64,000 nucleotides of DNA from an uncultured delta proteobacterium (GTDB taxonomy: Bacteria; Desulfobacterota; Syntrophorhabdia; Syntrophorhabdales; WCHB1-27). Positions 19,281-34,000 of the stretch are shown in pieces. The stretch's first letter is position 1; each line of letters opens with the position of its first letter. The stretch covers positions 290,108 to 354,107 of the forward strand of contig CAWFMJ010000015.1 in NCBI GenBank assembly GCA_963816715.1. The letters run 5' to 3'. The position numbers and the translations under genes are program-made. Below the pieces are notes generated by a model, which was not told the origin of the DNA, did not search any database, and worked only from the letters and a program-made list of their open reading frames with translations.

Positions 19281-21101
19281 ATGCCTAGCGCGGCATCCCA
19301 AATGAGCGATTCGGCCCTGAAGGAGGAGGCGGGGCGGCTGGGGCTCGAGGCCAGGAGAGGAGGCTTTTCCGAAGAGATTGTCGGACGCCTCTTCGCCATT
19401 GTCCGCGAAGTATCAGGAAGAACCCTGGGCCTCCGTCATTTCGATACGCAGCTTATGGGAGGTTTTCTCCTCCTCAAGGGGATGATCGCCGAGATGGAGA
19501 CGGGAGAGGGGAAGACGCTCACCGCCACCCTCGCCGCGAGCGCGGCGGCGCTTGCCGGGCTGCCCGTTCACGTGATTTGCGTGAACGACTACCTCACCGC
19601 GCGCGACGCGGAGGAGATGGGGCGTGTCTATAAAGCGCTCGGTTTGACCGTCGGCTGCGTGGTCCACGAGAAGACGCTTCGGGAGCGGCAGGCCGCATAC
19701 GGTTGCCAAATTACGTACTGCACCAATAAGGAGATCGTCTTCGACTACCTGCGCGACAGGCTGATCCTCGGAGATGCGACGGACAACCTTCGGCTGCAGG
19801 CGGAATACCTTCACTCCCGCGACGTGCGGGACGACCGCCTCCTTCTGCGCGGCCTTCATTTCGGCATTTGCGACGAGGCCGACAGCATCCTTGTCGACGA
19901 GTCACGCACGCCCCTCATCATTTCCGGCGCGGGAGACGGTAGGGAGGAAGAGGCGTTCCTCCGCCAGGCCTTGTCTTTGGCGAGATCGCTGAAGGAAGAT
20001 AAGGACTACTCCATCGACAGGGACCGGAACAGGATCGACCTGACGGACAAAGGACTCAATCGGGTTAAAACGGCCTCGGGCCAACTCGGCCCTCTCTGGG
20101 CGGTCGCTATCAGGCGCGACGAGACCATAAGGAAGGCGCTGGCCGCCCTCTACCTCTTTCAGGCTGACATCCATTACCTTGTCAAGGACGGCAAGGTACA
20201 GATCATCGACGAATACACGGGCCGGCTCATGCCGGATCGGTCCTGGGAGCGCGGCATGCATCAGCTCATCGAGATAAAGGAAGGGTGCGAGCCGACCCGT
20301 CAGGTGGAATCGATTGCCCGCATCACCTACCAGCGTTTCTTTCGGAGATATCTGCACCTTTGCGGCATGACGGGGACCGCCTGGGAGGTAAGAAAAGAGC
20401 TCTGGTCGGTGTACGGTCTTGCCGTTGCCCGGATGCCCACCGAAAAGCCCCTCAGGCGCCTTTATTTGCCCGGTTTTGTCGCGCCCACCATGGACCAAAA
20501 GCAGCGGGCCATTCTGGAGCGGGTGGAGGAGCTTTTTCACCTGGGCCGCCCCGTCCTTATCGGGACGCGTTCGGTAGCAGCTTCGGAAGAACTGAGCGCG
20601 CGCTTCACCGCGGCCGGTCTTGGCCATCGCGTCCTCAACGCAAAGAATGACGGCGAAGAGGCGGCAATCGTGGCCGAGGCCGGCAGGAGCGAGGCCATCA
20701 CTATCGCAACGAACATGGCGGGACGGGGCACGGATATCAAACTGGGACCGGGGGTTGCCGATCTCGGCGGGCTGCACGTGATCCTCTCGGAGCGGCACGA
20801 CGCCGGAAGGATCGACCGCCAGCTCGCGGGCCGTTGCGGCCGCCAGGGGGATCCGGGCAGTTTTGAGGCCATTTTGTCCATGGAGGATGCCTTGCTCGAA
20901 GGCGGCAGGGCAGGGATGTTCGGGTGGGCGGCGAAGCACGTACCCCGGTTTGCCGCCGGTCTCTGGACACTGATTTCGAAAATCGCTATAGTACATGCGC
21001 AACGAAGGATGGAGCGCGTCCATGCCCGCGCGAGACGGGAGCTTTTGAAGCAGGACGAGCAGATGGGCACGCTTCTTTCATTCTCCGGTTCCGGAGAATA
21101 G
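19281..21101 (+). CDS. SecA-like ATPase of 606 aa. The SecA motor core (NBD1, preprotein-binding region, NBD2) is present, but the C-terminal helical-wing, scaffold and zinc-binding tail of canonical ~900-aa SecA is absent.
   Basis: SecA signature strings are present: 'GMIAEMETGEGKTLTATL', 'ITYCTNKEIVFDYLRD', 'ICDEADSILVDESRTPLIISG', 'GMTGTA', 'ATNMAGRGTDIKLG', 'GGLHVILSERHDAGRIDRQLAGRCGRQGDPGSFEAILSMEDALL'. The protein ends ~40 aa after the last motif. Confidence 0.8.
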   Translation: MPSAASQMSDSALKEEAGRLGLEARRGGFSEEIVGRLFAIVREVSGRTLGLRHFDTQLMGGFLLLKGMIAEMETGEGKTLTATLAASAAALAGLPVHVICVNDYLTARDAEEMGRVYKALGLTVGCVVHEKTLRERQAAYGCQITYCTNKEIVFDYLRDRLILGDATDNLRLQAEYLHSRDVRDDRLLLRGLHFGICDEADSILVDESRTPLIISGAGDGREEEAFLRQALSLARSLKEDKDYSIDRDRNRIDLTDKGLNRVKTASGQLGPLWAVAIRRDETIRKALAALYLFQADIHYLVKDGKVQIIDEYTGRLMPDRSWERGMHQLIEIKEGCEPTRQVESIARITYQRFFRRYLHLCGMTGTAWEVRKELWSVYGLAVARMPTEKPLRRLYLPGFVAPTMDQKQRAILERVEELFHLGRPVLIGTRSVAASEELSARFTAAGLGHRVLNAKNDGEEAAIVAEAGRSEAITIATNMAGRGTDIKLGPGVADLGGLHVILSERHDAGRIDRQLAGRCGRQGDPGSFEAILSMEDALLEGGRAGMFGWAAKHVPRFAAGLWTLISKIAIVHAQRRMERVHARARRELLKQDEQMGTLLSFSGSGE

Positions 21102-21114
21102 GGAGGAAGGGTTT

Positions 21115-21858
21115 ATGAGCAGGAGGATCGGTACCGCGGCGCTCCTCGCAGCCGCGCTTTTCGTGGTGTTCTGCATCGGGGCGGGCAGGGCGGCCTGCCA
21201 GGAGTACCTGGAGGGGATGATAGAACCTTACCTGGTGGTGAACATCAGCAGCCAGACGCCGGGCATCATCGACCAGGTGCTGGTCGAGCGGGGGGACGTC
21301 GTGAAAAAAGGGCAGATCGTGGCGAACCTCCGCGCGGCCGTCGAGAAAGCCGACGTAGAGCTTGCGGAAGCGCAGGTGGCGTTCAGCAAGCGCAAACTCG
21401 GCCGCAACGAACAACTCTTCGAGCAGCAACATATCTCGGCAAATGAGAAGGATGAGATCGAGACGGACATGAAGAAGGGCGAAGCCTTGCTCGAAGAGGC
21501 AAAGGCAAAGCTCGAGATACGGAATATCCGCAGCACCGTGGACGGCGTCGTGGTGAAGCGGGAGCTGGCGGCGGGCGAGTACGTGGGCGAAAAGCCCATC
21601 GTGACCATAGCGCAGATTAACCCCCTCAACGTGGAAGTGGTCGCGCCGGTCAGGCGCTATGGCTCGATCACGAGGGGGATGCTGGCCGAAGTGAGGCCCG
21701 AAGCCCCGGTAGGCGGCTCGTACACGGGCAAGGTGGTCATCGTGGACAGGGTGGTCGACGCGGCAAGCGGCACCTTCGGCATCAGGGTAGAGTTGCCGAA
21801 CCCGAGCATGACCCTGCCGGCGGGGCTGAAGTGCCGGGTGAGGTTCTACCGAAAATAG
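21115..21858 (+). CDS. Short HlyD/RND-efflux-type periplasmic adaptor (membrane fusion)-like protein with an N-terminal signal/anchor sequence.
   Basis: Strong RBS 'GGGAGGAAGGG'. The N-terminus is hydrophobic ('IGTAALLAAALFVVFCIGAG'). Adaptor motifs include 'PYLVVNISSQTPGIIDQVLVERGDVVKKGQIVANL', a coiled coil, and 'IRSTVDGVVVKRELAAGEYVGEKPIVTIAQINPLNVEV'. Confidence 0.7.
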   Translation: MSRRIGTAALLAAALFVVFCIGAGRAACQEYLEGMIEPYLVVNISSQTPGIIDQVLVERGDVVKKGQIVANLRAAVEKADVELAEAQVAFSKRKLGRNEQLFEQQHISANEKDEIETDMKKGEALLEEAKAKLEIRNIRSTVDGVVVKRELAAGEYVGEKPIVTIAQINPLNVEVVAPVRRYGSITRGMLAEVRPEAPVGGSYTGKVVIVDRVVDAASGTFGIRVELPNPSMTLPAGLKCRVRFYRK

Positions 21859-21883
21859 TGCCTGTATAGTGGGTACGAGGCGT

Positions 21884-21917
21884 GCGGCCGGGTTAGGCGC
21901 GAAATTAACCCGGCCGC
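21884..21917 (+). terminator. Perfect 12-bp stem-loop (GCGGCCGGGTTA / TAACCCGGCCGC, 10-nt loop) just after the last operon gene. It is terminator-like but has no U-tract.
   Basis: Inverted repeat read directly: 'gcggccgggttaggcgcgaaattaacccggccgc'. Confidence 0.45.
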
Positions 21918-22232
21918 GAAACCACGGCTGCTTACTTGACCTGCCAGTGATTGCACCTGATCAGACCCTGGCCTGAGAGGCTTATCATTTCAGGACCAGA
22001 GAATCTTCAACGGCTCGTCGAAAAGTGAAGGGCGGTTCATGGCTGACTCCAGAGAGCGTATTGATTGTAAGAACTGAATTCGATAGTCAACAAAATGACA
22101 ATGTCCCCTTGGCCTGCCGCTCCTTGTAAGGCTTCGACGGAAAGCCAGAGGAGCAAATCGTGTCAAATGGGGCGTATAGTAAGAGGATGTGCCCTTGAAC
22201 CGCCTTCAACAGAATAAATCGTTTACATCGCG

Positions 22233-23615
22233 TTGGATTGGGCGTATATAGTAAATATGCCTTTAACGAGTGATACCATTGTTATAGGCTTCACCGGTTC
22301 TATCGGAAGCGGATGTACTTTCATTGCATCCAAAATAATGGACGAATACCGCTATGACTATTTTTCCCTGTCAAATATTCTTAAAGACAAGGCGCGAGCG
22401 GAAGGGAAAAGTGATTTTTCCGTACCTGCCCTCCAAGAGTATGGTGACTCTCTTCGAGCGCAATTTGGATCCGGTTTCCTCGTTGATCAGCTGATTAACA
22501 GTGTAATAGGGGAGCGGAAACTATCTGAGGTCATCCTCGTTGACAGCATCAGAAACGATGTTGAGGTACAGAGTCTAAAGCTGCTGCCACTTTTCTATCT
22601 TTTCTCTGTCCATGCTGACGAAGACGTCCGATGCGCAAGAACAATTAAGCAAAAGAGATTCGAGACTCCTGAGGATTTCCGCACTGCTGATGAGCGCGAT
22701 CAAGCCGAGGAATTCACCTTCGGTCAACAAGTGAAGAAGTGTAACGATCTTGCCGATGTCATAATTGACAACAACAGAACTTTTACCTCTACCGCACCTG
22801 GCAGAATAAGAGATTTCATACGGGGCATTCACCATCGTTATATCGCTTTGATTGTAGCGCGAAAAACCCATGCCTCCAGTCCTGAACATATACCATCAGA
22901 AGACGAGACCTTCATGACTATGGCCTACGCTGAGAGCCAGCGTTCGCACTGTTTAAAGAGAAAAGTCGGCGCGGTGGTAACGTCAAAATACGCAACTGCA
23001 CTCGGGGACGCTAATGCTATAAAGGACACCGTCATGGTAGTCTCTTCAGGGCACAATGAAGTGCCAGTTGGCACAACGCCTTGTGTTTTCGATGAGAAGC
23101 TTGAAAAATGCTATCGAGACTTCCTGCAGGAGGAACAGGCCGAGAAGTATAAGCATTGTCCTTTCTGTGGGACAGCCATCGCATTACCCGCGATCACCTG
23201 TAGAAATTGCGGCTATGAGACAAGCCGCTACGTAAAGACGTGCCCAAAGTGTAGGTCAGAACTCGACATCAAATATAGATGCCCAAACGAGAATTGCAGG
23301 AAAGACGTGTTCAAGGAATACTTAAGGGGGGGAGGCAAACTCCTTGATATGTGCAAGGCTTTGCATGCCGAAGAGAACGCACTCCTTGGTCTTGTACGAG
23401 TGCCAGGCATGGACGGCACTGATCTGACCCTTTACACGACTACATACCCTTGCAACCTTTGCGCGAACAAGATCGTAACTGCTGGGATTAAAACTATTGT
23501 CTATGCGGACCCCTATACAATGAAAGAAGCAGAATTGGTTCTGGCGGCTGGCAAAGTCGGCACCCGTAAGTTCCAAGGAATAAAGAGCGTTGCCTTTTTC
23601 AAGCTTTATTCTTGA
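22233..23615 (+). CDS. Fusion of an N-terminal nucleotide-kinase-like (CoaE/dNMP-kinase-like) P-loop domain with a C-terminal CMP/dCMP-type zinc cytidine deaminase. It resembles antiphage dCTP deaminase (DCD) defence proteins and has an inserted Cys4-type zinc ribbon.
   Basis: The N-terminus 'IVIGFTGSIGSGCTFIASKI' is a kinase-like P-loop, but Cys replaces the Walker-A Lys. The deaminase motifs are 'HAEENALLGL' and 'TYPCNLCANKIVTAGIKTIVYA' (H[AC]E...PCxxC). The insert is 'CPFCG...CRNCG...CPKCR...CPNENC'. The gene sits in an AT-richer island. Confidence 0.65.
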   Translation: MDWAYIVNMPLTSDTIVIGFTGSIGSGCTFIASKIMDEYRYDYFSLSNILKDKARAEGKSDFSVPALQEYGDSLRAQFGSGFLVDQLINSVIGERKLSEVILVDSIRNDVEVQSLKLLPLFYLFSVHADEDVRCARTIKQKRFETPEDFRTADERDQAEEFTFGQQVKKCNDLADVIIDNNRTFTSTAPGRIRDFIRGIHHRYIALIVARKTHASSPEHIPSEDETFMTMAYAESQRSHCLKRKVGAVVTSKYATALGDANAIKDTVMVVSSGHNEVPVGTTPCVFDEKLEKCYRDFLQEEQAEKYKHCPFCGTAIALPAITCRNCGYETSRYVKTCPKCRSELDIKYRCPNENCRKDVFKEYLRGGGKLLDMCKALHAEENALLGLVRVPGMDGTDLTLYTTTYPCNLCANKIVTAGIKTIVYADPYTMKEAELVLAAGKVGTRKFQGIKSVAFFKLYS

Positions 23616-24057
23616 AATACCGTTCCTGCCGTGCTACGTTTTCTTAAAACAGAAGGAGAGGAAGATGAAAAGAGAAGCCAAGCCAGGCGTATCAGGCAGC
23701 CTTTTTGCACAACAATCTTCGAGTGACCTTCCGTCTGAGAGAAAGAGATTGCGTCAAGAGGTTCAAGCCTACCAAACATACTCCAGAGTGTGGAGTTGCG
23801 AGTTACTGTGATCAAGCGATCCACCATTATGGACCGCAAAGAAGAGTGACATTGTCGATTATGCCTGTGGAGGAGAAGGGGAGAAGCTCTTGAAATGGCA
23901 TCCCGGTTATCTCAGGAGTTAATCAGTCCTCATTTCAACATTTCAAGAGCTTCTCCAAAGATCCCTGTCCGGAGAAGCAAATCTGTACTCTTTAGCGCCG
24001 ACGTGGCGAGAGTGGTGCGCAGCACTTTTCTCGCTTATCGTGCTTCTGGCTTTATCC

Positions 24058-25482
24058 TCACCTGCCGTGATTGGTCTTTCTGTTCTCTGCGGATGCATCA
24101 CGGCCCTTAAGACTAAACAACTTATCGGCCCGCCCGATTACCTCTCGCATATCGCAGGCGCTTGCGCAGGCCCTTTCCGTATCCGCTTCCAGTATTCCAG
24201 GTACATACCGGTAGCGCTGCACTCCAAAATCATTAATCCCCGCAGCTCCGGTTGCAAGAGCGACAAGCTGCAGGACTTCGAGAGACGCCAGGTTCGCGCT
24301 AAATGGAAAGACGTTCTCATTTCTCTTAAACCGGTGATCTTTTGGAAGCCCCTGTAGATATGACGGTTCATCCAACTTGCCTTCAATTTCCGTTGCCACA
24401 TCACTCGGCTCATACGTTTTTAGACATGCGAGGCAAGGGCGTTCAGGCCCTACCGTTTGGACCTGCCAATCGACGCCGGAAAACTTACCGTTCTTGAACC
24501 GAACTCCAATACCTCCGTCAATGACTGGGATTAGATGGGCATAAGCGAAATGATTCATAATGTGTCGGGCCCTGGGTCGATCGACGCAGCTGAATAATAC
24601 ATCGCAGTCCAGAGCCGCCTCGTAGCCTTCTTCTTCGACCAGGCTGTGCGGTGCCGACGTCACATCTATCATGGCAGCGGTCGCCGACCCGCGTATCTGT
24701 CTTTCGGCCGCGGTGACCTTCAACTGCCCTATGTCCTCTACGGTTGCCCCCATCAGCCGGTCCAAATTGTGCGGAAGTACTTTGTCGAAATCAATAAGGA
24801 CGAAAAACTGCATCCCCATACGGGCCAGGGTCTCCGCTACAATACTGCCCACGCTCCCCAGCCCAACAATGCCGATACGCAGCCGGGCGAGGTTCGCATG
24901 ATTCGCCTCTCCCCACACGGCGAAGGTCCGCTTGTAGACTTCTCGATAAGCCGGAGGTGGTGCTATGAAGTCGGCAAAGTCGACACTCAACCCACGACCT
25001 ACTTTTCTCACCGAGCGGCACCACTTGCGTTCGTAGTTCCGCGCTTCAATATGTTCCCACACCCTTGCGCTCCAGACGCCATCGGAGCTCAAGGTCAGAC
25101 CAACGAGGGGCAGGTCGGTGATAGCCCCCGCTGCCGACATCATCTTTCTTTCAGCGTCCACATCGTCCACGCTCATCCCCTGCCAGCCACGTCCCGGGTG
25201 GCTGTGAAGAAAAGCGATGCCACTACCCTCAGCCGCCGCCCTTTCGCAAACCCTCTCGAAATACCGAGGATTAAAGCTCACGTTTCTATGCCGCTGTCTG
25301 TCGCCCTCCACAGGATATATGGGGTCGTTGATGAGGGCTGTGAGACGCCGCCTCCCGTGAGACGGCGTCCACAGTGCAAACATAAGCTCTTCCTCTTCGT
25401 CAGGTCTCAAAAGGAATTCTTGAAGCTCGGCGTCGAGGACCGATAAGAGCGCAACGCTATACTCCCGCTCAGGCATTCGCAA
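24058..25482 (-). CDS. Fusion of a JAB/MPN (JAMM) metalloprotease domain with an E1-like (ThiF/MoeB) adenylyltransferase domain. It looks like a ubiquitin-like conjugation/deconjugation enzyme of the bacterial Ubl-E1-E2-JAB operon type.
   Basis: The JAMM-like motif is 'AFLHSHPGRGWQGMSVDD'. The E1 Rossmann motif is 'LRIGIVGLGSVGSIVAETLARMGMQFFVLIDFD' (GxGxxG...D). 'ERPCLACL' is a CxxC. The gene overlaps the upstream gene by 14 nt, so the two form an operon. Confidence 0.7.
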   Translation of the reverse strand: MRMPEREYSVALLSVLDAELQEFLLRPDEEEELMFALWTPSHGRRRLTALINDPIYPVEGDRQRHRNVSFNPRYFERVCERAAAEGSGIAFLHSHPGRGWQGMSVDDVDAERKMMSAAGAITDLPLVGLTLSSDGVWSARVWEHIEARNYERKWCRSVRKVGRGLSVDFADFIAPPPAYREVYKRTFAVWGEANHANLARLRIGIVGLGSVGSIVAETLARMGMQFFVLIDFDKVLPHNLDRLMGATVEDIGQLKVTAAERQIRGSATAAMIDVTSAPHSLVEEEGYEAALDCDVLFSCVDRPRARHIMNHFAYAHLIPVIDGGIGVRFKNGKFSGVDWQVQTVGPERPCLACLKTYEPSDVATEIEGKLDEPSYLQGLPKDHRFKRNENVFPFSANLASLEVLQLVALATGAAGINDFGVQRYRYVPGILEADTERACASACDMREVIGRADKLFSLKGRDASAENRKTNHGR

Positions 25483-26170
25483 ATACTCCGTTGATCTGTG
25501 ACAGGAGGCGTCGAACCGTTTTGTCTCCCGTCCAGCCGAAGTTCAGGCTCCAGTAGCGCCAGTCGGGACCCAGTGCGCTCGCGGTAATATTCCTGACATT
25601 AGGAACGGAATCGCCGCAATCGAAGAGCTGGGGCGACGCAAGTACGTGAATTGATGAACCGACTGTCCGGGGAAAATCAGCAGCGGCCAGAAGCCCTAGG
25701 TCGATCGTCCTGCCGGAGAATCGACCCATCGGAACTTCAAAACCTTTTACTATCGCATAATCATTGCCATCCGTGCCCTTCACCAGTTCGGCCTTATGTC
25801 CGTGCTCGCGAAGCTCGCTCACTAGTTTGTCGGGGCCGTAAGCCGGGCTCGATGAAACAGTCGTAGGCGTGTTGTAGTAGACTATGAACTTCATGCCGTC
25901 TTCCAGACGCACTACCTGATCGAGATCCGTGAGTTTGATAAGTTCGTTTCCCTTCTTTAACACAAGGGTGGTCTGAGCAGGATCCTCCTGAGCGAAGTTT
26001 TCCAGAAGGTTTCTCACGGTTATGTCTCTTGTCTCCGTCTCGAATTTTTCTGCCTTGTCGATGAAAAATGTAACTTCTTCATGCTTGTGGCTCTCGCCTT
26101 GCGTATTCATTGTTCCCTCCTTGAGAACAGGTTTGTCGTGGAAAGGTATAGAATCAAGGACGAGAAACAA
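25469..26170 (-). CDS. Partner protein of the JAB-E1 gene. Its N-terminal ~85 aa look like a beta-grasp/ubiquitin-like domain. Its C-terminal ~140 aa have a His...Cys arrangement, so it is a candidate E2-like domain.
   Basis: The Ubl-like segment is 'VTFFIDKAEKFETETRDITVRNLLENF...LVLKKGNELIKLTDLDQVVRLEDGMKFIVYY'. The possible catalytic region is 'SSIHVLASPQLFDCGDSVPNV' (His then Cys ~10 residues later, as in UBC-like folds). The assignment is tentative. The start may be at the internal Met (MNTQGESH, ~26110). Confidence 0.45.
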   Translation of the reverse strand: MFLVLDSIPFHDKPVLKEGTMNTQGESHKHEEVTFFIDKAEKFETETRDITVRNLLENFAQEDPAQTTLVLKKGNELIKLTDLDQVVRLEDGMKFIVYYNTPTTVSSSPAYGPDKLVSELREHGHKAELVKGTDGNDYAIVKGFEVPMGRFSGRTIDLGLLAAADFPRTVGSSIHVLASPQLFDCGDSVPNVRNITASALGPDWRYWSLNFGWTGDKTVRRLLSQINGVFANA

Positions 26171-26330
26171 GCTAACTCGTGTTTTTCTTCATAGACACCT
26201 CCTTTGCCCCGCCTTGACAAAGGAAGTAAGCCCTGATACTTTTAAAATGTCGGGGCAGTTCCTCTGCGGGCTGGACCCGGTTTCGTCGGGGCTGAGGAAA
26301 CTTTCGAAGGGGACCTCAGCCCCGTTTTTC

Positions 26331-26360
26331 ATTTTAGATGATGTTTAGGATAAAAGTCAA
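26331..26360 (-). promoter_or_regulatory. Sigma70-like promoter on the minus strand (TTGACT-18 nt-TAAAAT) for the Ubl/E2-like and JAB-E1 operon. A perfect 10-bp stem-loop (26292-26330) lies in the leader.
   Basis: The minus strand reads 'cccTTGACTtttatcctaaacatcatcTAAAATg'. The leader hairpin is GGGGCTGAGG...CCTCAGCCCC. Confidence 0.45.
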
Positions 26361-26397
26361 GGGAAACTTATTTATTATAGTAAAGTGAAAATAAATC

Positions 26398-26426
26398 TTG
26401 ACATTACCTGCACTACTTGTTAGATT
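26398..26426 (+). promoter_or_regulatory. Divergent sigma70-like promoter on the plus strand (TTGACA-17 nt-TAGATT). It precedes a ~280-nt non-coding stretch that ends in a terminator-like hairpin.
   Basis: 'TTGACAttacctgcactacttgtTAGATT' read directly. Confidence 0.45.
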
Positions 26427-26677
26427 GTCTGTGAGGCAAGATTGAATATCTCTTTTGGCGGGACTTTGGCTCCCAATGAGACTCGACCGCAAGCACACAC
26501 TTCAACCTGAATGGGTGGCGTGCAACTATCGTGTTAAACGACCACCGCGTAAAGATCAGTGGTGACTACGGGCCGTCCCTTCGGTTGCAGCCGGAAAGGC
26601 ATGCTTAACCTTCAAGGAAAGCGACAATTATAGTCCGGTGTTGGGCCAACAAGCTTTTGTGGGGGCATATGACACGG

Positions 26678-26725
26678 CGGCGAGACATTTCCGATATAAC
26701 CACGGCTGTCTCGGCCGTTTTTTTT
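26678..26725 (+). terminator. Rho-independent terminator-like hairpin (CGGCGAGACA...TGTCTCGGCCG) followed by T8. It abuts the XRE gene start.
   Basis: 'cggcgagacatttccgatataaccacggctgtctcggccgtttttttt'. Confidence 0.5.
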
Positions 26726-26732
26726 GTGCACT

Positions 26733-27056
26733 ATGGAAAAAACGCTTAACAAGCTCATTGGCGACAGAATCAGGAATGCCCGAGCAGACAAGGGCAAGAA
26801 GCAGGCAGACCTGGCAAGCGCGATTGACTCCACTCCCGCTTTAATCTCGAACATCGAAAACGGCCAGCAGAGTATCCATATCGTAGACCTTTATAAGATC
26901 GCGGGCTTATTGGAGAAGCGGGTAGCGGAGCTTCTGCCAACTATAGAGGAAGTCGAAGATGCTACTCCTTCAATAGAGAAGGAAAGAGAGAAACTGGCGC
27001 CTCAGGAAGCAGCTTTTGTTGATGAGCTGCGAAAAAAAATGTCAGAGGGGGAATGA
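26733..27056 (+). CDS. XRE-family helix-turn-helix transcriptional regulator.
   Basis: 'LIGDRIRNARADKGKKQADLASAIDSTPALISNIENGQQSIHIVDLYKIAGLL' is a Cro/C1-type HTH. It overlaps the downstream ImmA-like gene. Confidence 0.75.
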   Translation: MEKTLNKLIGDRIRNARADKGKKQADLASAIDSTPALISNIENGQQSIHIVDLYKIAGLLEKRVAELLPTIEEVEDATPSIEKEREKLAPQEAAFVDELRKKMSEGE

Positions 27057-27610
27057 TGTTAAGAAAAGTCCGTGCAAGAAGGATTGCTCAAGGACTTTTG
27101 GAAGAATTCAAGATGAGCAGACAGGCCCCGATAGACGTCAGAAAAATCGCCGAGGAACTGGTTACAAGAAAGACTGATCAAGTAGGCGTATCGACCCTTT
27201 CAATCGAGAGTAAGGATTTCCCGGACGAATTGCAGGACGTTTCTGCGGTTCTCGTTAAGGAAAAAGGGTCCGCTTTTATTGCTGTGAACGCATCGCATTC
27301 CCTCGTTCGTCAACGGTTCTCGATTGCACACGAACTCGGGCACCTGATTTTGCACGAAGGTGCGGAGTATCTTACGGTTGACCGCTACGAGAAGCAGTTA
27401 TTTACGAGGGCGGAGGGCGTCGGGGGCTTGGACGAGTACGAAGCTAATGAATTTGCGGCAGCGCTCCTTATGCCCGAAAGGGCGATAAGCGAGGCGTTCG
27501 ATCGGCTCTTTGAAGAGCAAGCAGATAACATCATTAGCCAGCTTGCTCAAAAATATGAAGTGAGCGAAGCTGCGCTCAGTTATAGGTTAAGAAACTTGGG
27601 TCTTCTATAG
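27053..27610 (+). CDS. ImmA/IrrE-family zinc metallopeptidase, the partner of the XRE regulator.
   Basis: HExxH is 'FSIAHELGHLILHEG'. The downstream motif 'EYEANEFAAALLMPE' is typical of ImmA/IrrE proteases. There is a 4-nt overlap with the HTH gene. Confidence 0.75.
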   Translation: MMLRKVRARRIAQGLLEEFKMSRQAPIDVRKIAEELVTRKTDQVGVSTLSIESKDFPDELQDVSAVLVKEKGSAFIAVNASHSLVRQRFSIAHELGHLILHEGAEYLTVDRYEKQLFTRAEGVGGLDEYEANEFAAALLMPERAISEAFDRLFEEQADNIISQLAQKYEVSEAALSYRLRNLGLL

Positions 27611-28009
27611 TTTTAGCCCAAGGGGAGGCAATAGGAGGGCGAGGGAGGTTAACGGGGAAGGCCTGAGGGTCAAATCTTTATCCTTTGCTTAAGGCGCCTC
27701 CTCGGCCAGTCCTACCTCTCATTGATTACAATCGATAAGGCAGCCATTGCAAGAAAAACGTACAGCCTCTCCATTTCAGGAACGACACTTTCCAACCGGC
27801 AAGGGTCTGACCGGGACTATGGAAGTACAGCAAGGGCATCAGGAGCGGCAGCGCTGTGGATTGAGGTGCGGATCGCCGAGGAGTGGGAACAAGGGAGGAT
27901 AGAGGGACGGGCGCGAAATTATAACTGGAAAGGGCTAGGGGTCAGCCCTTGACGGCCTGTTGCCCAAACGGTTCTTCTGAAGCGGGCGATAGTTTCCTGC
28001 CGCTTGCGA

Positions 28010-29617
28010 TTACGGCAGGGTCGCCGGACAACCCGACCATATCTCTCCATGAAGAAAGACAAGGTACAATTCGATGCATGCCCGTTTGGCTCTTCCCATC
28101 GTTTCCAGAGGGGCAGTTCTTATCCCCTTCGTCGGTTTGATTGCATGCCGGATCAATGTCTCGATGTTCTGAACGGCCGACACCAGGTACTCCTGGATAG
28201 CCACTCTCCACAGTCCACGCCAGCGAGCCCGATCAAACCCGAAGCGCGCGCTCCGAGCAAAGGAGCGCTCCATAAGCTGTTGACGCGTTTTAAGGTCTCT
28301 TTTTGCCGCACGGGTTTCAGTAAGCGCAAGCATATGGTCAAGCTCTTCCTGTCGAACGTGACGCTGCACCGTTCGCGGTCCTTTTGCCCTGGTGCACTGA
28401 GATCGCAAGGCGCATGCAGCGCAGCCTCTCTTTGATCCCGCATATTCGACGTTCTGCTTGTTTTCGTGGATTGACCTTCTCTTCAGCGTCTTTCCTGCAG
28501 GACAGGTAAAGGCATCGTTCTCCTTATGATAGACAAACTGCTCTTCCGGGAAAATCCCGTCTCGTGAACTCGTGCCGCTCGTGACGGCCTTGACGGCGGG
28601 CGTGTGGGGCTGTATGCCTTTATCGCAGCAAAGCAGAAGGTTTTCTTTTGTGCCGTACTTGCTGTCGGCCACAACAGTTTTTACCGCCGAATCGGCATTC
28701 TTTTCGTGTTCCTCAATGAGAGCGCCCATTTCGCGCCCGTCGTCAACAACGCCGGGGGTCGCCTTCACCGCCGTAATCACTTCATGGAGTCCATCAACCG
28801 CCCGGTGGGTCTTATACCGCAGCTTTGCCTTGCCTCCTGCATGGCGGACGATTGATGCATCGGAATCCGTGGTGGAAACATACCGCGCATTGACCGTAGT
28901 GTTTTTCGGTCGTGCGGTTTTAGGGGCATCTGCGGTCTCCTCGGGGGACTCGGCATTCTCCTCCGCGGCCCCGTCGGCTTTAGGTTGCGAGGTCTCAGCA
29001 GGAGCTTTCGTTGAGCCGGCTTCTTCTTTTGCGGCATCCAATCTTTTTTCCAGCTCCCGATAGCGTCCGTTGAGATATCGTTTGAGAGCGTGGGAATCCA
29101 CGACGGAGTTGTTGGAGGCGTCGGCGTCGATAAGGCTTGAGTCCATGAAGATCTTGCCGCCATCGACCAGCCCTGCTTCAACGCACTGCACCACGATCCG
29201 CTCGAAGAACTGCTTGAAGACTTCCTCGCCCCATCTCTTTCTCGCCTTCGACAGAACGCTGTGATCGGGTACGGACGATTCGATGGTGAGCCCGAGAAAC
29301 CAGAGCCAATCCAATCGCTCGGGAAGAGTCTCCATAAGTTCCCTTTCAGAGCGGACATTGTAGAGTATGAGGAGAAGCATGAGCTTGAGAATGACCGGGG
29401 GAGGAACGGAGACGTTGCCCTTCTCCCCATAAGTTTTCTTGACTTCGTCGTAAATGAAGTCGAAGTCGATCAGTTCCTTGATTTTGCGAAGAGGGTGGTC
29501 CTTGCGGACTCTCGTCTCAAGCTGAACATGGTAAGAAAAGAGGGGGTCGTTAGGCGGGGGGTCGTAACCCATCATGGGCCGCATCTCCTTGTCCTGAGCG
29601 TTCATAAAGCTTACCAT
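28010..29617 (-). mobile_element. IS element transposase gene, an IS5/IS1182-like DDE transposase of ~535 aa. The exact IS boundaries were not resolved.
   Basis: The N-terminal transposase-associated region is 'YHVQLETRVRKDHPLRKIKELIDFDFIYDEVKKTYGEKGNVSVPPPVILKLMLLLILYNVRSERELMETLPERLDWLWFLGL'. The DDE region is 'GKIFMDSSLIDADAS'. The C-terminal cysteine cluster is 'FTCPAGKTL...CAACALRSQCT'. Confidence 0.75.
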
Positions 29618-29785
29618 ACGCTACCGGAGAAGGCCACATAATTGTATGCAATGACGAACACAAACCACGAATTGTCTGTTCTTCTGCTTGCGCCGGAATC
29701 ACGATTTGGGCAACAGGCCGTTGACAGCGGACAACGATCCATGGTGGGTCAGACTCTATCGTCCACCAAGAAGGGAGACCCAATG

Positions 29786-29944
29786 GCCCGTCCCTTAAGA
29801 ATCGAATACGAAGGCGCCTTCTACCACATAACGGCGAGGGGAAACGAGAGAAGGAGGATCTTTCTTTCCAAGGCCGACCATGAGAAGTTCCTTGCCAATC
29901 TCCGCATGTCAGCCGAGCGCTTTTTTGTCGGCCCCGCGAGCTGA
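29786..29944 (+). pseudogene. N-terminal fragment of an IS200-like/REP-associated tyrosine (Y1) transposase. It is truncated after ~53 aa.
   Basis: 'MARPLRIEYEGAFYHITARGNERRRIF' matches the N-terminal signature of Y1 transposases. The ORF ends where the vapC gene begins. Confidence 0.55.
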
Positions 29945-29948
29945 CTTA

Positions 29949-30344
29949 CTACGACAGCGTGATTGCGATTGCCTCGCGAATGTCTTTGAAGTGCTCGTCG
30001 AGGGTGAGAATTGCGCATTGCTGTTCGTGAGCAATGGCGGCAATGTAGCAGTCGGCCAGATTTACCGTCTTTCCCTTCCTTTTGAGCAGGTAAGCCAGTT
30101 TTCCGGCGTTGACCCACGTATGCTCGCCTTGATCTACTATGATGAAGGCGCCGAAAAAGGATTCTATGGTTTTGATCTCCCGTTCGGACTTTGCGCCCTG
30201 GAGGAGTTCGGCGAGAACAATCTTCGGAACGCATATTTCCGCCTCGGTCATCAAGCTTTCGACGCGCTTGCTCAGCTCGACGGAAGTGTTTCTGAAATAG
30301 GCTATCCAGACCGACGTATCTATCAGGACGCGGTCAGCGATCAT
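29949..30344 (-). CDS. vapC: PIN-domain ribonuclease toxin VapC.
   Basis: 'VLIDTSVWIAYF...LTLDEHF' is a PIN fold with conserved acidic residues. It overlaps the upstream antitoxin gene by 11 nt. Confidence 0.8.
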   Translation of the reverse strand: MIADRVLIDTSVWIAYFRNTSVELSKRVESLMTEAEICVPKIVLAELLQGAKSEREIKTIESFFGAFIIVDQGEHTWVNAGKLAYLLKRKGKTVNLADCYIAAIAHEQQCAILTLDEHFKDIREAIAITLS

Positions 30345-30531
30345 AGTGACGCAGCTCCTCAGCGGTAAGATCGAATTCCAGCTTCCCTTTCATGGACTTG
30401 ATCTTTTCCACCCTGCGGCGTCTGAGATAGTCGGAAATGGCTTCCTTTACAGCCGTCGTTTTGTTCTTCGCGTGGGTCTCAGCCAAAAGCTCATCGAGCA
30501 TATTCTTCTCAATAGTTACTGTGCTCCTCAT
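30334..30531 (-). CDS. vapB: VapB-type antitoxin (65 aa).
   Basis: It is a small protein immediately upstream of the PIN toxin and overlapping it, which is typical type II TA architecture. Confidence 0.65.
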   Translation of the reverse strand: MRSTVTIEKNMLDELLAETHAKNKTTAVKEAISDYLRRRRVEKIKSMKGKLEFDLTAEELRHYDR

Positions 30532-30989
30532 TGATCACACTCCTATTGTAAAACTATGCTACATGATAGCACATAAGTCTTGCAGACTGCAATGTTGAAA
30601 TGCTGCATATGCAATAGGAGCGCTATTTTATCCGCTACCTTCCACTGGAGCGCTCCTTACCTCCTGTTCCTGCGTCATCATTACTACTTTCATTCCGGAT
30701 GCACGAGAACAAACATAGAACTGAAGACGATGCACCGGAAGTGCTAATGCCAAGCTGTCGTCGAATTTCGGCATACGAGATGCCCGGTTCTCTTGCCAGA
30801 GTGAAGGCAAGCTCTGATCTGAGAGGCGGGGAAGATGGGGTCAGGCAAAAAAACGTATCGGGCAGCACAAGCTCCTCTCCGTTTCCGGAAATTCGATCCC
30901 CCTGGGTTGAGAAAGAGAAAGACCCCGGATAGGTCGCCGCAAGGCAACCTATCCGGGGCGTCAAGCCGGGGCCGAAGAACCGCCTGTTG

Positions 30990-33041
30990 TTATTCTGTTA
31001 TGTCCGCGGCAGGCTGGCTTGACGAGCCATCTGTGGTAGATGGCAGAACATTCGTCACAGCCCCGGGCACGAGTTTGTGCATCAGGATCGCCGCCAACCC
31101 TTCCAGGACTCCGCCGCCCGAATCGCTGCCGCCAATGACCAGGGTATTGGGCATGAATGGAACGGTGCTCTTTGAGAGAGCCTCGACGGCGTTCACGAGA
31201 GCCGTGGCGCCCTGGCCCAGTGCCGCGACCTGCTTTTGATAGGCCTCAGCCCTGGCCAGACCGATGGCCCTGACTTGAGCGCCCTGAGCGGCGCCGGTCC
31301 GTTCGATGTAGGTGGCCTCGCCGTCGGCTTCGGCTTTGCGGGCTTCGGCGTTATTCTTCTTGATGTCGACACCGACTGCCGACTGAGCAAGTCCCGCCTG
31401 CATGTCGGCGGTTCCTTTGGCCTTCTCGGTCTCGACGCGCTGGTCCTGGGCCTGCCGCTGCATCTTGAAGGTCTCGACTTCCTGATGGGCGACCTCGCGC
31501 TGAGTCAGCACCGTGACCAGCGGCGCCGGGTAAATCACGTCCTGAATATAGACGCCCCGAGTCTCGATTTCGTACTCGGCGAGTTTTTCTTGTATATACT
31601 TCATTGCTTCTTCCTGAACGATCTGGCGCGTCTGGATAAACTTGATGGCTTCCATACCGCCGATCTTGTCGCGGAAGAGGTTGCCGACGGCCGCCTGCAG
31701 GACTTCGTTCACCAGGTTTTCCATGGAGCCGACCATGGAAATAACCCGCGGCGCCCTGGTGTCGGGAACGTGAATGAGCACCTGGAGATCGATGGAAAAG
31801 ACGAAGCCCTCATTGCTTTTGGCAATGATGGGCTCGAGGCGTGCATCGAGGCCATGAGCCCCGGTGACGTCTTTGGCCCAGTCGAGCTTGAGGATGGCCG
31901 TGAGGACCACCTTGGCGTCGTAAATCCGGGGGTTGATCGGGTACTTTCCGGTTCTCAACGCTTCCTGCCAGATGCCCTGATGGCCGGGTCGCACCAAACT
32001 CCCGAACTTGAAGCCCACGCCTGAAATATCCTGAGTCGGCAAACCGACATAGGCTTTGATGACGCCGACCTGGCCCTGTTCGACAACCAGCATCGGGACC
32101 TGTTCGACGCGTACCAGGAATGGATTCAGGTTATAGGCGCCGTAGAGAAGCGGGTCGTGCTGCAGGCCGATCTTCCCGCCGGCTTCCAGGAACTTTTGGA
32201 AATCCTGGTAGTTGTTGTGCAGATCGTTCTTGCTGCCAAGGATTAAGCCCATTAGTTGGAAGTCGGTGACGTCGTCTTTCTTTTCAAGTTCTTTGATGTC
32301 CTCAAACCCTCCGAGCCGACTGGCGATGGCGCCGGCCGGCAGCGGTTCGCCATCGAGCGTCGTGACGATGCCTATCATGTCCAGGACTTTTCCGCCCTCA
32401 GCGGGTTTTGGGGCAATGCGGGTGACCTCCAACTGCATTGCTTCAAGGCCGAAAGCTGCGGCCGTAAGCCCGTCTTTTGCGTCAGCGAGTTTCCTGTATT
32501 CGTCGGAAACCGGCACGCCAAAGATCTGCGGCTTGGTGATGACCAAAAAAGCCACGGGGTGAATCGGCGCCAGCGTTCCCGGAGAGAGAACCGGCCTCTG
32601 CACGCCTTTTTGGCCGCCCTTTTCAATAAAGATCTTGAGATCGGTGAAATTACCGAACTCGGATTTGTAGACGCCCGATTTGGCGCCGATAGGCGTTGGC
32701 TCGCCGACTTGCGCGATGACCACGCCGATTTGGCCCGCCGGCACCTGAACCCACGGATGTTTTGTGACGTCGTAGATGAGGCAGAACTTGAAACGGAGGC
32801 CGGGCATAAGCAACTCGGCCTGGTAACCGGCTTCCCCCACGAAAGCCACGGGGTTGTTGCCGGGCAGCTTCGCTCCAAACCGCTTACGGACCAGTCCGAT
32901 CTGGGTCGGGCCGATGCTGTAGATCGATTTGAAAAACACGACCAGCACGAAAAGCACGATCAAAACGCCCAGCACACCTTCCGGAAACGCATAAGACGTT
33001 GTTTCTATCATTGCTTCGTTCTCCTTTGTGCGGACTTCCAT
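30990..33041 (-). CDS. Flotillin-like SPFH/band-7 family membrane protein (YqiK-type).
   Basis: It has an N-terminal TM helix ('LGVLIVLFVLVVFF'), an SPFH domain ('IGLVRKRFGAKL...'), and a long Ala/Glu/Gln-rich coiled coil ('AEARKAEADGEATYIERTGAAQGAQVRAIGLARAEAYQKQVAALG'). Confidence 0.8.
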   Translation of the reverse strand: MEVRTKENEAMIETTSYAFPEGVLGVLIVLFVLVVFFKSIYSIGPTQIGLVRKRFGAKLPGNNPVAFVGEAGYQAELLMPGLRFKFCLIYDVTKHPWVQVPAGQIGVVIAQVGEPTPIGAKSGVYKSEFGNFTDLKIFIEKGGQKGVQRPVLSPGTLAPIHPVAFLVITKPQIFGVPVSDEYRKLADAKDGLTAAAFGLEAMQLEVTRIAPKPAEGGKVLDMIGIVTTLDGEPLPAGAIASRLGGFEDIKELEKKDDVTDFQLMGLILGSKNDLHNNYQDFQKFLEAGGKIGLQHDPLLYGAYNLNPFLVRVEQVPMLVVEQGQVGVIKAYVGLPTQDISGVGFKFGSLVRPGHQGIWQEALRTGKYPINPRIYDAKVVLTAILKLDWAKDVTGAHGLDARLEPIIAKSNEGFVFSIDLQVLIHVPDTRAPRVISMVGSMENLVNEVLQAAVGNLFRDKIGGMEAIKFIQTRQIVQEEAMKYIQEKLAEYEIETRGVYIQDVIYPAPLVTVLTQREVAHQEVETFKMQRQAQDQRVETEKAKGTADMQAGLAQSAVGVDIKKNNAEARKAEADGEATYIERTGAAQGAQVRAIGLARAEAYQKQVAALGQGATALVNAVEALSKSTVPFMPNTLVIGGSDSGGGVLEGLAAILMHKLVPGAVTNVLPSTTDGSSSQPAADITE

Positions 33042-33556
33042 TTATGGCTGCGGCCTTCACACTTCCTCCTCGCAAGTGTTGGGTAAATGTCCTGATCTCG
33101 GGGCAGACCGCCCGAACAGGGGGTTGAACACGACTCTCCAGGAGAGACTATACCGCTTTCCGCGCACTTTCTCTATCAGTCATGGCGGCGCAGCCGCCGA
33201 CGCCGGAACCGGCAGGGCCTCGCCTGTCCCTCCAAGGGCGCCCACAAGACTCATGTGAACGTAAATGAATGCAAACAAATAACCAATTTTACCGGCAGCA
33301 GAGAGGTGGTCGAGGTATCAAGCTTATCGTCAAACCGGCGCAAACCGCCGGAAAGGGCAACGTGGACAGATCTCCGTGACGGTAGAAGCAGGTTCCTCGG
33401 CTTTGTGAACAACCCCGTTGTACATAGCTGATGAATTCTTTGTTCCCGTAATCAGGTAAAAAGGCATATCGAGCAGTAATTCCGTCGCCGGGCTTGATGC
33501 CCACGGCAGCGGTAATTATAACCATACTGAGGGACAGCAGAGGATGCGAGGAGGTC

Positions 33557-34000
33557 ATGAAAATGGTGAGGAACTTCGACCATTGCACGGTCGTGGTGCG
33601 CGATATTCAAGCGGCAAAAGAATTCTTTGCGCTCCTGGGGTTTCGGGAGGATTATGCAGGCGTCGTATCGGGGGATAAGTTCTCGGCGTATATGGGAGTG
33701 GACGACATCGAGGCGGATCATGTCACGTTAGTTCTTCCGGACTCTTCTCCGCGGCAGGAGATTCAACTGCTCAGATATCACAAGCCCATGCCGGTTGTCG
33801 ATCCCAACATTGAGCGACTCGACAAGGTGGGTTACAACCATCTTTGCTTTGCCGTCGACGACATAGAGCAGGAAGTAAAGCGGCTCAAACGGGAAGGCGT
33901 CAGGTTCTTGAATGAGATCATGGAATTCAGGGGCAGAAAATTGACATTTGTTTCCGGTCCTGAAGGGATCACGCTGGAGTTGTCGGAGAGGCTGAGATGA
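33557..34000 (+). CDS. VOC/glyoxalase-family protein.
   Basis: RBS GAGGAGG. 'FDHCTVVVRDIQAAKEFFALLGF...YNHLCFAVDDIEQEVKRLKREGVRF' is a glyoxalase fold signature. Confidence 0.7.
   Translation: MKMVRNFDHCTVVVRDIQAAKEFFALLGFREDYAGVVSGDKFSAYMGVDDIEADHVTLVLPDSSPRQEIQLLRYHKPMPVVDPNIERLDKVGYNHLCFAVDDIEQEVKRLKREGVRFLNEIMEFRGRKLTFVSGPEGITLELSERLR

Follow-up and report, generated by a model that had tools for sequence, protein, structure and literature searches.

A divergent dCTP deaminase of the anti-phage family with a double zinc-ribbon insert and a putative small partner gene downstream

The window analyzed here is a stretch of 64,000 nucleotides from an uncultured delta proteobacterium (contig CAWFMJ010000015.1, positions 290,108 to 354,107), and it encodes a protein in which an N-terminal kinase-like domain is fused to a C-terminal zinc deaminase domain. 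Judged from its sequence, the gene is a distant member, in a distinct clade, of the known family of anti-phage dCTP deaminases, and PADLOC would already call it. We put the probability that the product is a nucleotide-depleting defence enzyme of this family at about 0.7. A small gene lies just downstream of the enzyme gene in most relatives; this partner looks new, whereas the enzyme architecture and the P-loop are already known in the family.

The open reading frame (ORF) runs without interruption from 22233 to 23615 on the + strand and has 460 codons when read from TTG at 22233. A first-pass annotation of the window gave these limits for the gene. The strand and frame hold, but the true start is probably ATG at 22257, because an identical protein in a public collection (P0001) has 452 residues and starts there, and because the alignment begins at about residue 3 in all homologues. 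Residue numbers below refer to the 452-residue protein, and nucleotide positions refer to the window. The ORF is full length and keeps every residue that is invariant in the family alignment.

The proposal of the first-pass annotation that this fusion is related to the defensive dCTP deaminases is borne out by profile searches. The PADLOC dCTPase model PDLC02373 spans residues 12–460 of the 460-residue ORF with E = 2.3e-75 (252.7 bits). The NCBIfam equivalog NF041025, "anti-phage dCTP deaminase", aligns over profile positions 2–431 of 437 with E = 1.8e-58, although its score of 198.5 bits does not reach the curated cutoff of 400 bits; the Escherichia coli AW1.7 enzyme scores 449 bits. We recovered the AW1.7 gene from its genome by means of the sequence in Table S5 of Tal et al. 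(preprint, 10.1101/2021.04.26.441389), and by BLASTP its product is 26% identical to the window protein over 392 residues (E = 1e-25). Tal et al. (10.1101/2021.04.26.441389) define the family by an N-terminal kinase-like domain and a C-terminal cytidine/dCMP-type deaminase domain in one protein of more than 350 residues. The window protein has 452 residues, Pfam matches to PF00383 and AAA_17, and Foldseek matches to 3lw7 and to dCMP deaminases. A profile search of 1.84 billion cluster representatives (50% identity) returned 685 proteins at E ≤ 1e-30, and on these numbers the ORF and its architecture exceed chance. The AlphaFold2 model, built from a 50-homologue alignment, has a mean predicted local distance difference test (pLDDT) score of 86 and a predicted template modelling (TM) score of 0.82. 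Among the matches listed from the PDB, none spans both the kinase-like and the deaminase domain in one chain. One relative, from Desulforamulus (Desulfotomaculum) putei DSM 12395, is in Table S1 of Tal et al. (10.1101/2021.04.26.441389), where it is flagged as defence linked, while no Lentisphaerae, Aminicenantes, or names beginning with Desulfobac were seen in their family list. A phage origin of the family was also considered and is rejected, because 50,697 phage records yielded no more than two distant matches, to which two IMG/VR contigs can be added.

The N-terminal half of the protein has an adenylate kinase-like fold. Foldseek against the PDB matches it to the adenylate kinase-related protein SSO1041 (3lw7) with E = 1e-9 and a TM score of 0.78 on the target, and also to 3h0k and to adenylate, UMP/CMP, and dephospho-CoA kinases. 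A phmmer comparison with 3lw7 gives E = 3.8e-5, and Pfam AAA_17 matches with E = 0.0018. Arg-67, Arg-125, Arg-128, Asp-145, and Asp-148, among others, are invariant in the 50-homologue alignment and are typical of nucleotide-kinase folds. A functional kinase would carry a Walker A motif GxxxxGK[ST] with the catalytic lysine, and here the P-loop, GSIGSGCT, has a cysteine in that place. The first-pass annotation had noted the replaced lysine as a feature of this protein and proposed a nucleotide-sensing role without phosphotransfer. The replacement is real, but it is no local peculiarity. The AW1.7 protein, which begins MAEQKF...GLTGRTGSGCTTT, has GRTGSGCT with Gly-29 and Cys-30 at the positions of Gly-19 and Cys-20 of the window protein. 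In the 120 closest homologues the P-loop is nearly always GS[IL]GSG[CS][ST], and among the 113 listed representatives with a locatable P-loop, the lysine position holds cysteine in 97 and lysine in none. The remaining P-loops have Ser, Val, Ala, Gly, or Arg, and the Arg cases are possibly mis-registered regular-expression matches. Thus, the cysteine-bearing P-loop is the norm, even a hallmark, of the family. Since the P-loop has no lysine, the N-terminal domain most likely binds a nucleotide without phosphotransfer, a fair inference that applies family-wide and not to this protein specially. In AW1.7, the G29A/C30A substitution abolishes both defence and dCTP depletion (Tal et al., 10.1101/2021.04.26.441389); what the window protein shares with that enzyme here is the presence of the Gly-Cys motif only.

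A second cysteine of the kinase-like domain, Cys-162 in the motif QQVKKC (22740–22742), corresponds to Cys-311 of AW1.7 and is conserved between the clade and that enzyme. A paired role with the P-loop cysteine was considered and dropped, as there is no strict covariation: the second cysteine persists in 22 proteins whose P-loop has Ser, Ala, Val, Gly, or Thr. The dCTP deaminase of a Klebsiella plasmid is without both the P-loop cysteine and the QQVKKC cysteine.

The C-terminal half matches human, T4, S-TIM5 (cyanophage), and Streptococcus mutans dCMP deaminases in Foldseek searches. In the 50-homologue alignment, Leu-369, Glu-372, and Glu-373 are invariant around the catalytic HAE, with His-370 and Ala-371 nearly so; Pro-398, Cys-399, and Cys-402 of PCNLC are invariant; and Cys-232, Cys-276, Cys-285, and Cys-366 are invariant or nearly so. 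By BLASTP, the invariant Cys-232 and Cys-276 align with Cys-370 and Cys-401 of AW1.7, which were mutated as zinc ligands by Tal et al. (10.1101/2021.04.26.441389). With HAE at 370–372 and PCNLC at 398–402, the window protein thus has the zinc-ligand and catalytic residues by which those authors characterize the deaminase domain, and all the AW1.7 residues tested by mutation are kept (Gly-29/Cys-30 as Gly-19/Cys-20, and Cys-370/Cys-401 as Cys-232/Cys-276).

Between the GxNE strand and the HAE helix, a cysteine-rich module is inserted. The first-pass annotation described it as a zinc ribbon with four CxxC motifs; the insert is indeed within the deaminase domain, but it comprises three CxxC motifs and one Cx4C, namely CPFC (301–304), CRNC (315–318), CPKC (329–332), and CPNENC (342–347), and it is a trait of the whole clade. 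All eight cysteines are invariant or nearly so in the 50 homologues. The AlphaFold2 model shows β-hairpins with pLDDT values of 80–87, and the Pfam DZR (double zinc ribbon) model matches with E = 2.8e-4, under its gathering score, as other zinc-ribbon models also do weakly. The AW1.7 segment that aligns with residues 302–361 by BLASTP is slightly shorter and has one cysteine and no CxxC. The number of cysteine pairs in the insert varies among the listed representatives: 14 have four, 5 have three, 70 have two, or a single ribbon, 12 have one, and 28 have none. On these counts, a ribbon at the insert position is common in the wider family, and the double ribbon marks the clade of the window protein. 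In the dCMP deaminases of T4, human, and S. mutans, a structural zinc and the allosteric nucleotide site are located in this part of the fold, after the second strand and before the HAE helix. One family representative of 608 residues (P0245) continues for 200 residues past its deaminase domain, and this C-terminal extension does not resemble the small partners described below.

We compared the gene contexts of 62 loci from species-representative genomes, plus others, and 52 homologous loci entered the count of small ORFs. An ORF was counted as a partner if it had 40–90 codons, lay on the same strand, and started between −20 and +100 nt from the deaminase stop codon. An ATG-initiated ORF of this kind is present at 47 of the 52 loci, and a GTG start adds 3 more, to give 50 of 52. 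As a control, the test was applied to the stop codons of a further 415 long frames at these loci, and 22% of them pass. The partner has about 44–81 residues, is directly downstream of the enzyme, and is also called by independent gene callers. We consider it very probable that the partner is a genuine gene under conservation.

Two clades can be told apart among the loci. In clade A, which includes Desulfobacterota, Planctomycetota, Lentisphaerota, Aminicenantes, and one Bathyarchaeia genome, the enzyme has 441–485 residues with ribbons, and the partner is basic and of low complexity. Its C-terminus has a motif resembling IPNLLKNxPFxIKFY, for example EIPNLLKNLPFRINYY, KIPNLLKNRPLAIKFY, or VTKGRPFTIKV, and a matrix of this motif derived by expectation maximization scores 7–23 bits in 25 partners vs. 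−3 ± 4.3 bits for random ORFs of the window. In clade B, from Clostridia, Methanobacteriaceae, and Thermoplasmatales, the enzyme has 358–415 residues and no ribbons, and the partner often overlaps the enzyme stop (ATGA). A zinc ribbon, M.ICPKCGK..SYNSYFGAYIC.DC.WE, forms the N-terminus of this partner, and the tail behind it is basic. The ribbon is in the enzyme and not the partner at 22 loci and in the partner and not the enzyme at 22 loci, with no overlap; of the remaining loci, one is degenerate and one has no small ORF. Because the clade B enzymes, which have no ribbons, have ribbon-bearing partners, it is either the enzyme or the partner that provides the zinc ribbon. None of the partners is covered by a Pfam family, no DNA-binding fold was found in clade A partners, and there are no natural fusions of enzyme and partner among 268 family proteins. 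The searchable literature, with subscription journals outside its coverage, has no mention of a protein partner or of the CapH/CapP association described below. Two IMG/VR contigs (L075 and L076) encode clade B deaminases of 33–34% identity, directly followed by a zinc-ribbon partner in L076, and the cassette may thus occasionally travel on prophages.

In the window itself, the partner is frameshifted as assembled. The frame from ATG 23665 has 48 codons, ends at 23811, and does not contain the family motif; as the normal partner it was rejected, since it scores at background on the motif and no 9-mer in any frame passed the strict position-specific scoring matrix. More sensitive tblastn and hidden Markov model (HMM) tests place the motif, SSLPNILQSVELRVTVIK, in another frame at 23739–23846, with a stop at 23847–23849. 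Six clade A partners match this frame by tblastn at 23748–23825 (IASRGSSLPNILQSVELRVTVIKRST), with best E values of 6e-4 and 1e-3, while their N-terminal matches fall in the ATG 23665 frame. One base inserted anywhere from 23737 to about 23758 joins the two frames to give a 61-residue product. When 1,113 window frames are searched with the partner HMM, this product ranks first (14.3 bits, E = 0.0025). A close relative (P0003) has a 57-residue gene at equal spacing. A composite of all three frames used as query found no database homologues of the window partner.

The same sequence is available from a second, independent assembly (L001; Logan, ERR11523660). Over 13,440 nt, the two differ at two single-base gaps only, where the window has an additional base, a C at 19284 and a G at 23737. 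Because of the extra C, a SecA-like gene whose frame is intact in L001, with 662 residues, reaches a stop after 58 codons in the window, which therefore probably carries single-base insertion errors. The extra G falls in the purine tract where the partner frame must change. The L001 version has a 75-residue ORF and misses the motif frame as well; if the intact tract were TCT-GAGAAAGAG, the additional bases would be A in L001 and GA in the window. The C-terminus of the L001 ORF, the third-frame segment QRRVTLSIM, was also considered as the true motif, and it was matched by none of 27 partner queries. The frameshift in both assemblies may thus come from a base-calling error, from heterogeneity in the population, or from real decay. 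If it is decay, the local copy would be an inactive remnant that has lost its partner, as the out-of-frame motif in both assemblies and the insertion sequence (IS) transposase 4 kb away would allow. However, the deaminase ORF is full length with its invariant residues in place, and the one-base disagreement between the assemblies is in exactly the partner tract. Together with the probable error at 19284, this disagreement makes base calling or heterogeneity a live alternative. We regard a decayed local copy as unlikely, although it is the strongest of the rival explanations, and it would be compatible with the family-level one.

The coordinates of the cassette and its neighbors are collected in Table 1.

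Table 1. Features of the deaminase cassette and neighboring genes in the 64,000-nt window
Feature	Position	Strand	Evidence
Kinase-like/deaminase fusion gene	22257–23615	+	ORF listing; identical database protein P0001 (452 aa); PADLOC dCTPase; NF041025
Adenylate kinase-like domain, N-terminal (about residues 7–205)	22275–22871	+	AlphaFold2 (pLDDT 86); Foldseek; phmmer; invariant residues
P-loop GSIGSGCT (residues 14–21), Cys-20 at the Walker A Lys position	22296–22319	+	Sequence; AW1.7 likewise (GRTGSGCT)
CMP/dCMP-type zinc deaminase domain (about residues 215–452)	22899–23612	+	PF00383, E = 1.6e-13; Foldseek
Double zinc-ribbon insert (about residues 298–350)	23148–23306	+	Eight Cys; AlphaFold2; Pfam DZR
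Catalytic HAE (His-370, Ala-371, Glu-372)	23364–23372	+	Sequence; 50-homologue alignment
Zinc-binding PCNLC (Pro-398 to Cys-402)	23448–23462	+	Invariant Pro-398, Cys-399, Cys-402
Shine-Dalgarno-like GGAGAGG ahead of partner ORF	23655–23661	+	Sequence
Small partner gene, frameshifted as assembled	23665–23849	+	Conserved downstream ORF; tblastn; HMM
Extra G, absent from L001	23737	+	Alignments; in purine tract where the partner frame must change
ThiF-type E1	24058–25482	−	Pfam ThiF, E = 2.8e-32; JAMM-like HxH...SxxD in N-terminal part, by eye
233-aa protein with Prok-E2_E region	25469–26170	−	Pfam Prok-E2_E, E = 7.7e-4
CapH-like helix-turn-helix (HTH) protein	26724–27056	+	PADLOC capH, E = 2.7e-9; Pfam HTH_3
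CapP-like M78 peptidase	27053–27610	+	PADLOC capP, E = 1.6e-29; Pfam Peptidase_M78
IS4/DDE transposase, 535 aa	28010–29617	−	About 4 kb from cassette; no PADLOC match

The guanine-plus-cytosine (GC) content of the cassette is 43–50%, compared with 61–64% in the flanks, and the family has a patchy distribution over several phyla (Desulfobacterota, Planctomycetota, Lentisphaerota, Aminicenantes, Clostridia, and archaea). This suggests that the cassette at 22257–23849 was horizontally acquired and has an accessory, defence-like context. Next to it is a pair of ubiquitin-like E1 and E2 genes, to which PADLOC E1-E2 models match with E values down to 5e-19, and which is probably a separate system. 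The CapH/CapP pair is transcribed divergently from this E1/E2 set. A tblastn search of 80 loci with the neighbor proteins of the window found them, besides L001, only at three relatives of 53–56% identity, L072, L079, and L080, which are also beside E1/E2 genes or a Bil operon and CapH/CapP (L072:11688–15888, L079:2614–5757, and L080:1982–5317). The neighbor in L072 is a four-gene Bil-type operon whose E1 has no tblastn match, and the E1 proteins of L079 and L080 are 28–29% identical to that of the window. Because the neighbors recur at these three of the 80 loci only, with different gene orders, we rejected a functional link and read the association as co-location in an island, not as one system.

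Tal et al. (10.1101/2021.04.26.441389) take a cluster defence score above 0.33 as their criterion for a defence location. Defence-type neighbors are present in the window and at L003, L004, L070, L072, L073, L079, and L080, and there are none at L074; the genes adjoining relatives include type I restriction–modification, Eco29kI restriction–modification, ParE, HEPN/MNT, Bil, and helicase/trypsin genes. The reduced-GC stretch at about 22000–34000 includes the IS4/DDE transposase and a gene for a 683-residue SPFH/Band 7 protein (30990–33041, −) with no PADLOC match, and there are no tRNA genes in the 64-kb window. Farther upstream, a hemolysin-type calcium-binding-repeat gene contains two adjacent copies of about 365 nt (12368–12734 and 12716–13082) that are 78–79% identical. 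It lies upstream of GAF/HlyD-like and SecA-like genes, which look like a secretion cluster unrelated to the deaminase cassette.

Several points weigh against a defence enzyme controlled by a small partner. The NF041025 score (198 vs. 400 bits) does not give strict membership in that model, and the identity to any tested enzyme is about 26%; therefore, the substrate and the phenotype are extrapolated from distant relatives. Some relatives, such as L074, are flanked by housekeeping genes and have no further defence gene in their vicinity. The 22 vs. 22 complementarity of the ribbons coincides with two clades and may go back to a single evolutionary event. Finally, the window partner ORF has no in-frame motif, and a broken essential inhibitor beside an intact enzyme would be unexpected.

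The mechanism that we propose is as follows. The N-terminal domain would bind a nucleotide, as the substrate triphosphate or as an allosteric ligand, without phosphate transfer. On infection, the enzyme would be unleashed to convert dCTP, or possibly dCMP, to deoxyuridine nucleotides, and the loss of dCTP would starve phage DNA synthesis. We infer the dCTP-depletion step, with dCTP as the substrate and phage defence as the phenotype, by analogy with AW1.7 and DcdV. The partner ORF (about 44–81 codons) would be translationally coupled downstream of the enzyme, and its product, with a basic, low-complexity N-terminus and a conserved strand-like motif at the C-terminus, may dock on the enzyme and gate its activity as an inhibitor or sensor. 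That the partner acts as a gatekeeper is a possibility to which we give somewhat less than even odds. The idea is drawn by analogy with the control of DcdV by DifV, a small RNA that restrains it (10.1101/2021.03.31.437871), and with the transcription shutoff proposed as a trigger by Tal et al. (10.1101/2021.04.26.441389). More tentative still is the wider picture of a large two-gene branch of the family in which the coupled small protein is the gatekeeper, and in which the zinc-ribbon control module is carried either on the partner, as in the clade of Clostridia and archaea, or inside the deaminase.

Rather than a dedicated phage defence, the same pairing might be a toxin–antitoxin or addiction module that stabilizes the mobile island, in which the deaminase would arrest growth as a toxin through dCTP depletion, with the small protein as antitoxin. 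DcdV does behave as a toxin checked by a co-encoded factor (10.1101/2021.03.31.437871), the two genes form a tightly coupled unit that is alone between housekeeping genes at L073 and L074, and toxin–antitoxin genes adjoin some loci (ParE in L004 and PhdYeFM in L079). However, the partner is downstream of the enzyme, the clade A partners gave no sign of a DNA-binding fold, and a partner that is broken here beside an apparently intact enzyme fits poorly with an essential antitoxin. Many toxin–antitoxin modules also defend, so that this explanation, which we find improbable, would be compatible with defence.

The target of the deaminase could also be cytosine in DNA or RNA, with the ribbons and the basic partner binding nucleic acid, so that phage nucleic acid is mutated or edited. 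Zinc ribbons and Lys/Ser-rich tails are common nucleic acid binders, the Pfam MafB19-deam model scores 29.2 bits (cutoff, 27), and SNAD4/APOBEC-like models match the HAE-PCxxC core weakly. However, these toxin-type matches span the generic catalytic core only, while the whole protein aligns with the dCTP deaminase models. The best matches in both sequence and structure are mononucleotide dCMP deaminases, and the GxNE motif and the cysteine pair equivalent to Cys-370/Cys-401 of AW1.7 are conserved. Deamination of polynucleotides is thus quite improbable.

The protein might also work in normal pyrimidine metabolism, as a dCMP deaminase of the housekeeping or salvage type in which the kinase-like domain is regulatory. 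This is the least probable of the alternatives, and by a wide measure improbable in itself. Relatives are labelled "deoxycytidylate deaminase" in their sources, and the cassette is near nucleotide-metabolism genes in L003 and L074. However, the ComEB model TIGR02571 covers the catalytic core alone and scores 44.2 bits, far under its curated cutoff of 219, so that a ComEB identity was rejected; the GC content is 43–50% in the cassette and 61% in the genome; and relatives, which occur sporadically across the phyla named above, have no conserved synteny with housekeeping genes. A best hit to a housekeeping dCMP deaminase or ComEB with conserved synteny was one finding that the first-pass annotation had said would speak against its proposal, and the results go the other way.

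A nucleotide-depleting defence enzyme with a candidate partner is thus the explanation that we favor. The papers on defensive dCTP deaminases leave open how the enzyme is kept off in healthy cells and how phage infection activates it (10.1101/2021.03.31.437871; 10.1101/2021.04.26.441389). Across about 50 loci in many phyla, a conserved small gene accompanies the enzyme, and a zinc ribbon is found either in the enzyme or in the partner. The partner is a concrete and testable candidate for a regulatory subunit, and models that treat the dCTP deaminase system as a single gene leave out a component for many of its members. If the gatekeeper proposal is correct, this branch would offer a protein-based handle on how infection switches on nucleotide-depleting deaminases.

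Of the known systems, the E. coli AW1.7/U09 anti-phage dCTP deaminase (10.1101/2021.04.26.441389) is alike in the combination of a kinase-like domain with a zinc deaminase, in the Gly-Cys P-loop, in the cysteines equivalent to Cys-370/Cys-401, in HAE...PCxxC with a large insert before the HAE helix, and in its location in mobile, low-GC islands. Besides the 26% identity, the AW1.7 enzyme differs in having about 180 extra residues after the P-loop, compared with the compact domain of the window protein; in the single cysteine of its ribbon-aligned segment, compared with eight cysteines and two ribbons; and in having no tightly coupled small ORF downstream.

DcdV-DifV of Vibrio cholerae is likewise a fusion of a P-loop-kinase-like domain with a deoxycytidylate deaminase, in which both domains are needed, deoxycytidine nucleotides are depleted, and toxicity is restrained by a small factor encoded adjacently (10.1101/2021.03.31.437871). 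That restrainer is a noncoding RNA 5′ of dcdV, whereas the conserved neighbor in the cassette of the window is a protein ORF on the 3′ side. An Rfam search for a DifV-like upstream RNA over 21700–24200 at E ≤ 1 gave two chance-level matches only, no promoter-like site was found, and no upstream DNA is conserved among relatives. On these results, a 5′ RNA of the DcdV-DifV type is rejected; an unrelated, undescribed RNA may be present.

The clade B cassettes, such as that of D. putei DSM 12395 (388 residues), are 31–37% identical to the window protein over the full length and share the P-loop G[SP]FGSGC[ST] and the two-gene layout with a coupled downstream ORF. They differ in that the enzyme is without the ribbon module of about 43 residues, while the partner starts with a zinc ribbon (CPKCG...SYNSYFGAYIC.DC.WE) and the ATGA overlap is frequent. 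The dCMP deaminases ComEB, T4 Cd, human DCTD, and that of S-TIM5 have the same catalytic fold and HAE/PCxxC zinc site, but no kinase-like domain, zinc ribbons, or partner ORF. In housekeeping and phage enzymes of this kind, it is the insert segment that carries the structural zinc and the allosteric site.

The dCTP deaminases of 4.6-kb ColE1-type Klebsiella plasmids and of E. coli pRHB10-C19_3 (IncI) are about 25–27% identical over 92–98% and also have a tightly linked small ORF, of 60–61 codons. In these plasmids, however, the small ORF is upstream of the enzyme, the P-loop is GAVGSGIKS, and there are no zinc ribbons. The plasmid ORFs (L077:124–306 and L078:3697–3882) are 12–34 nt upstream of the enzyme, and their products end in ...SLKW (...LKW) and ...KITW (...ITW). 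In the classical branch of the family, this upstream ORF may represent a different type of small partner.

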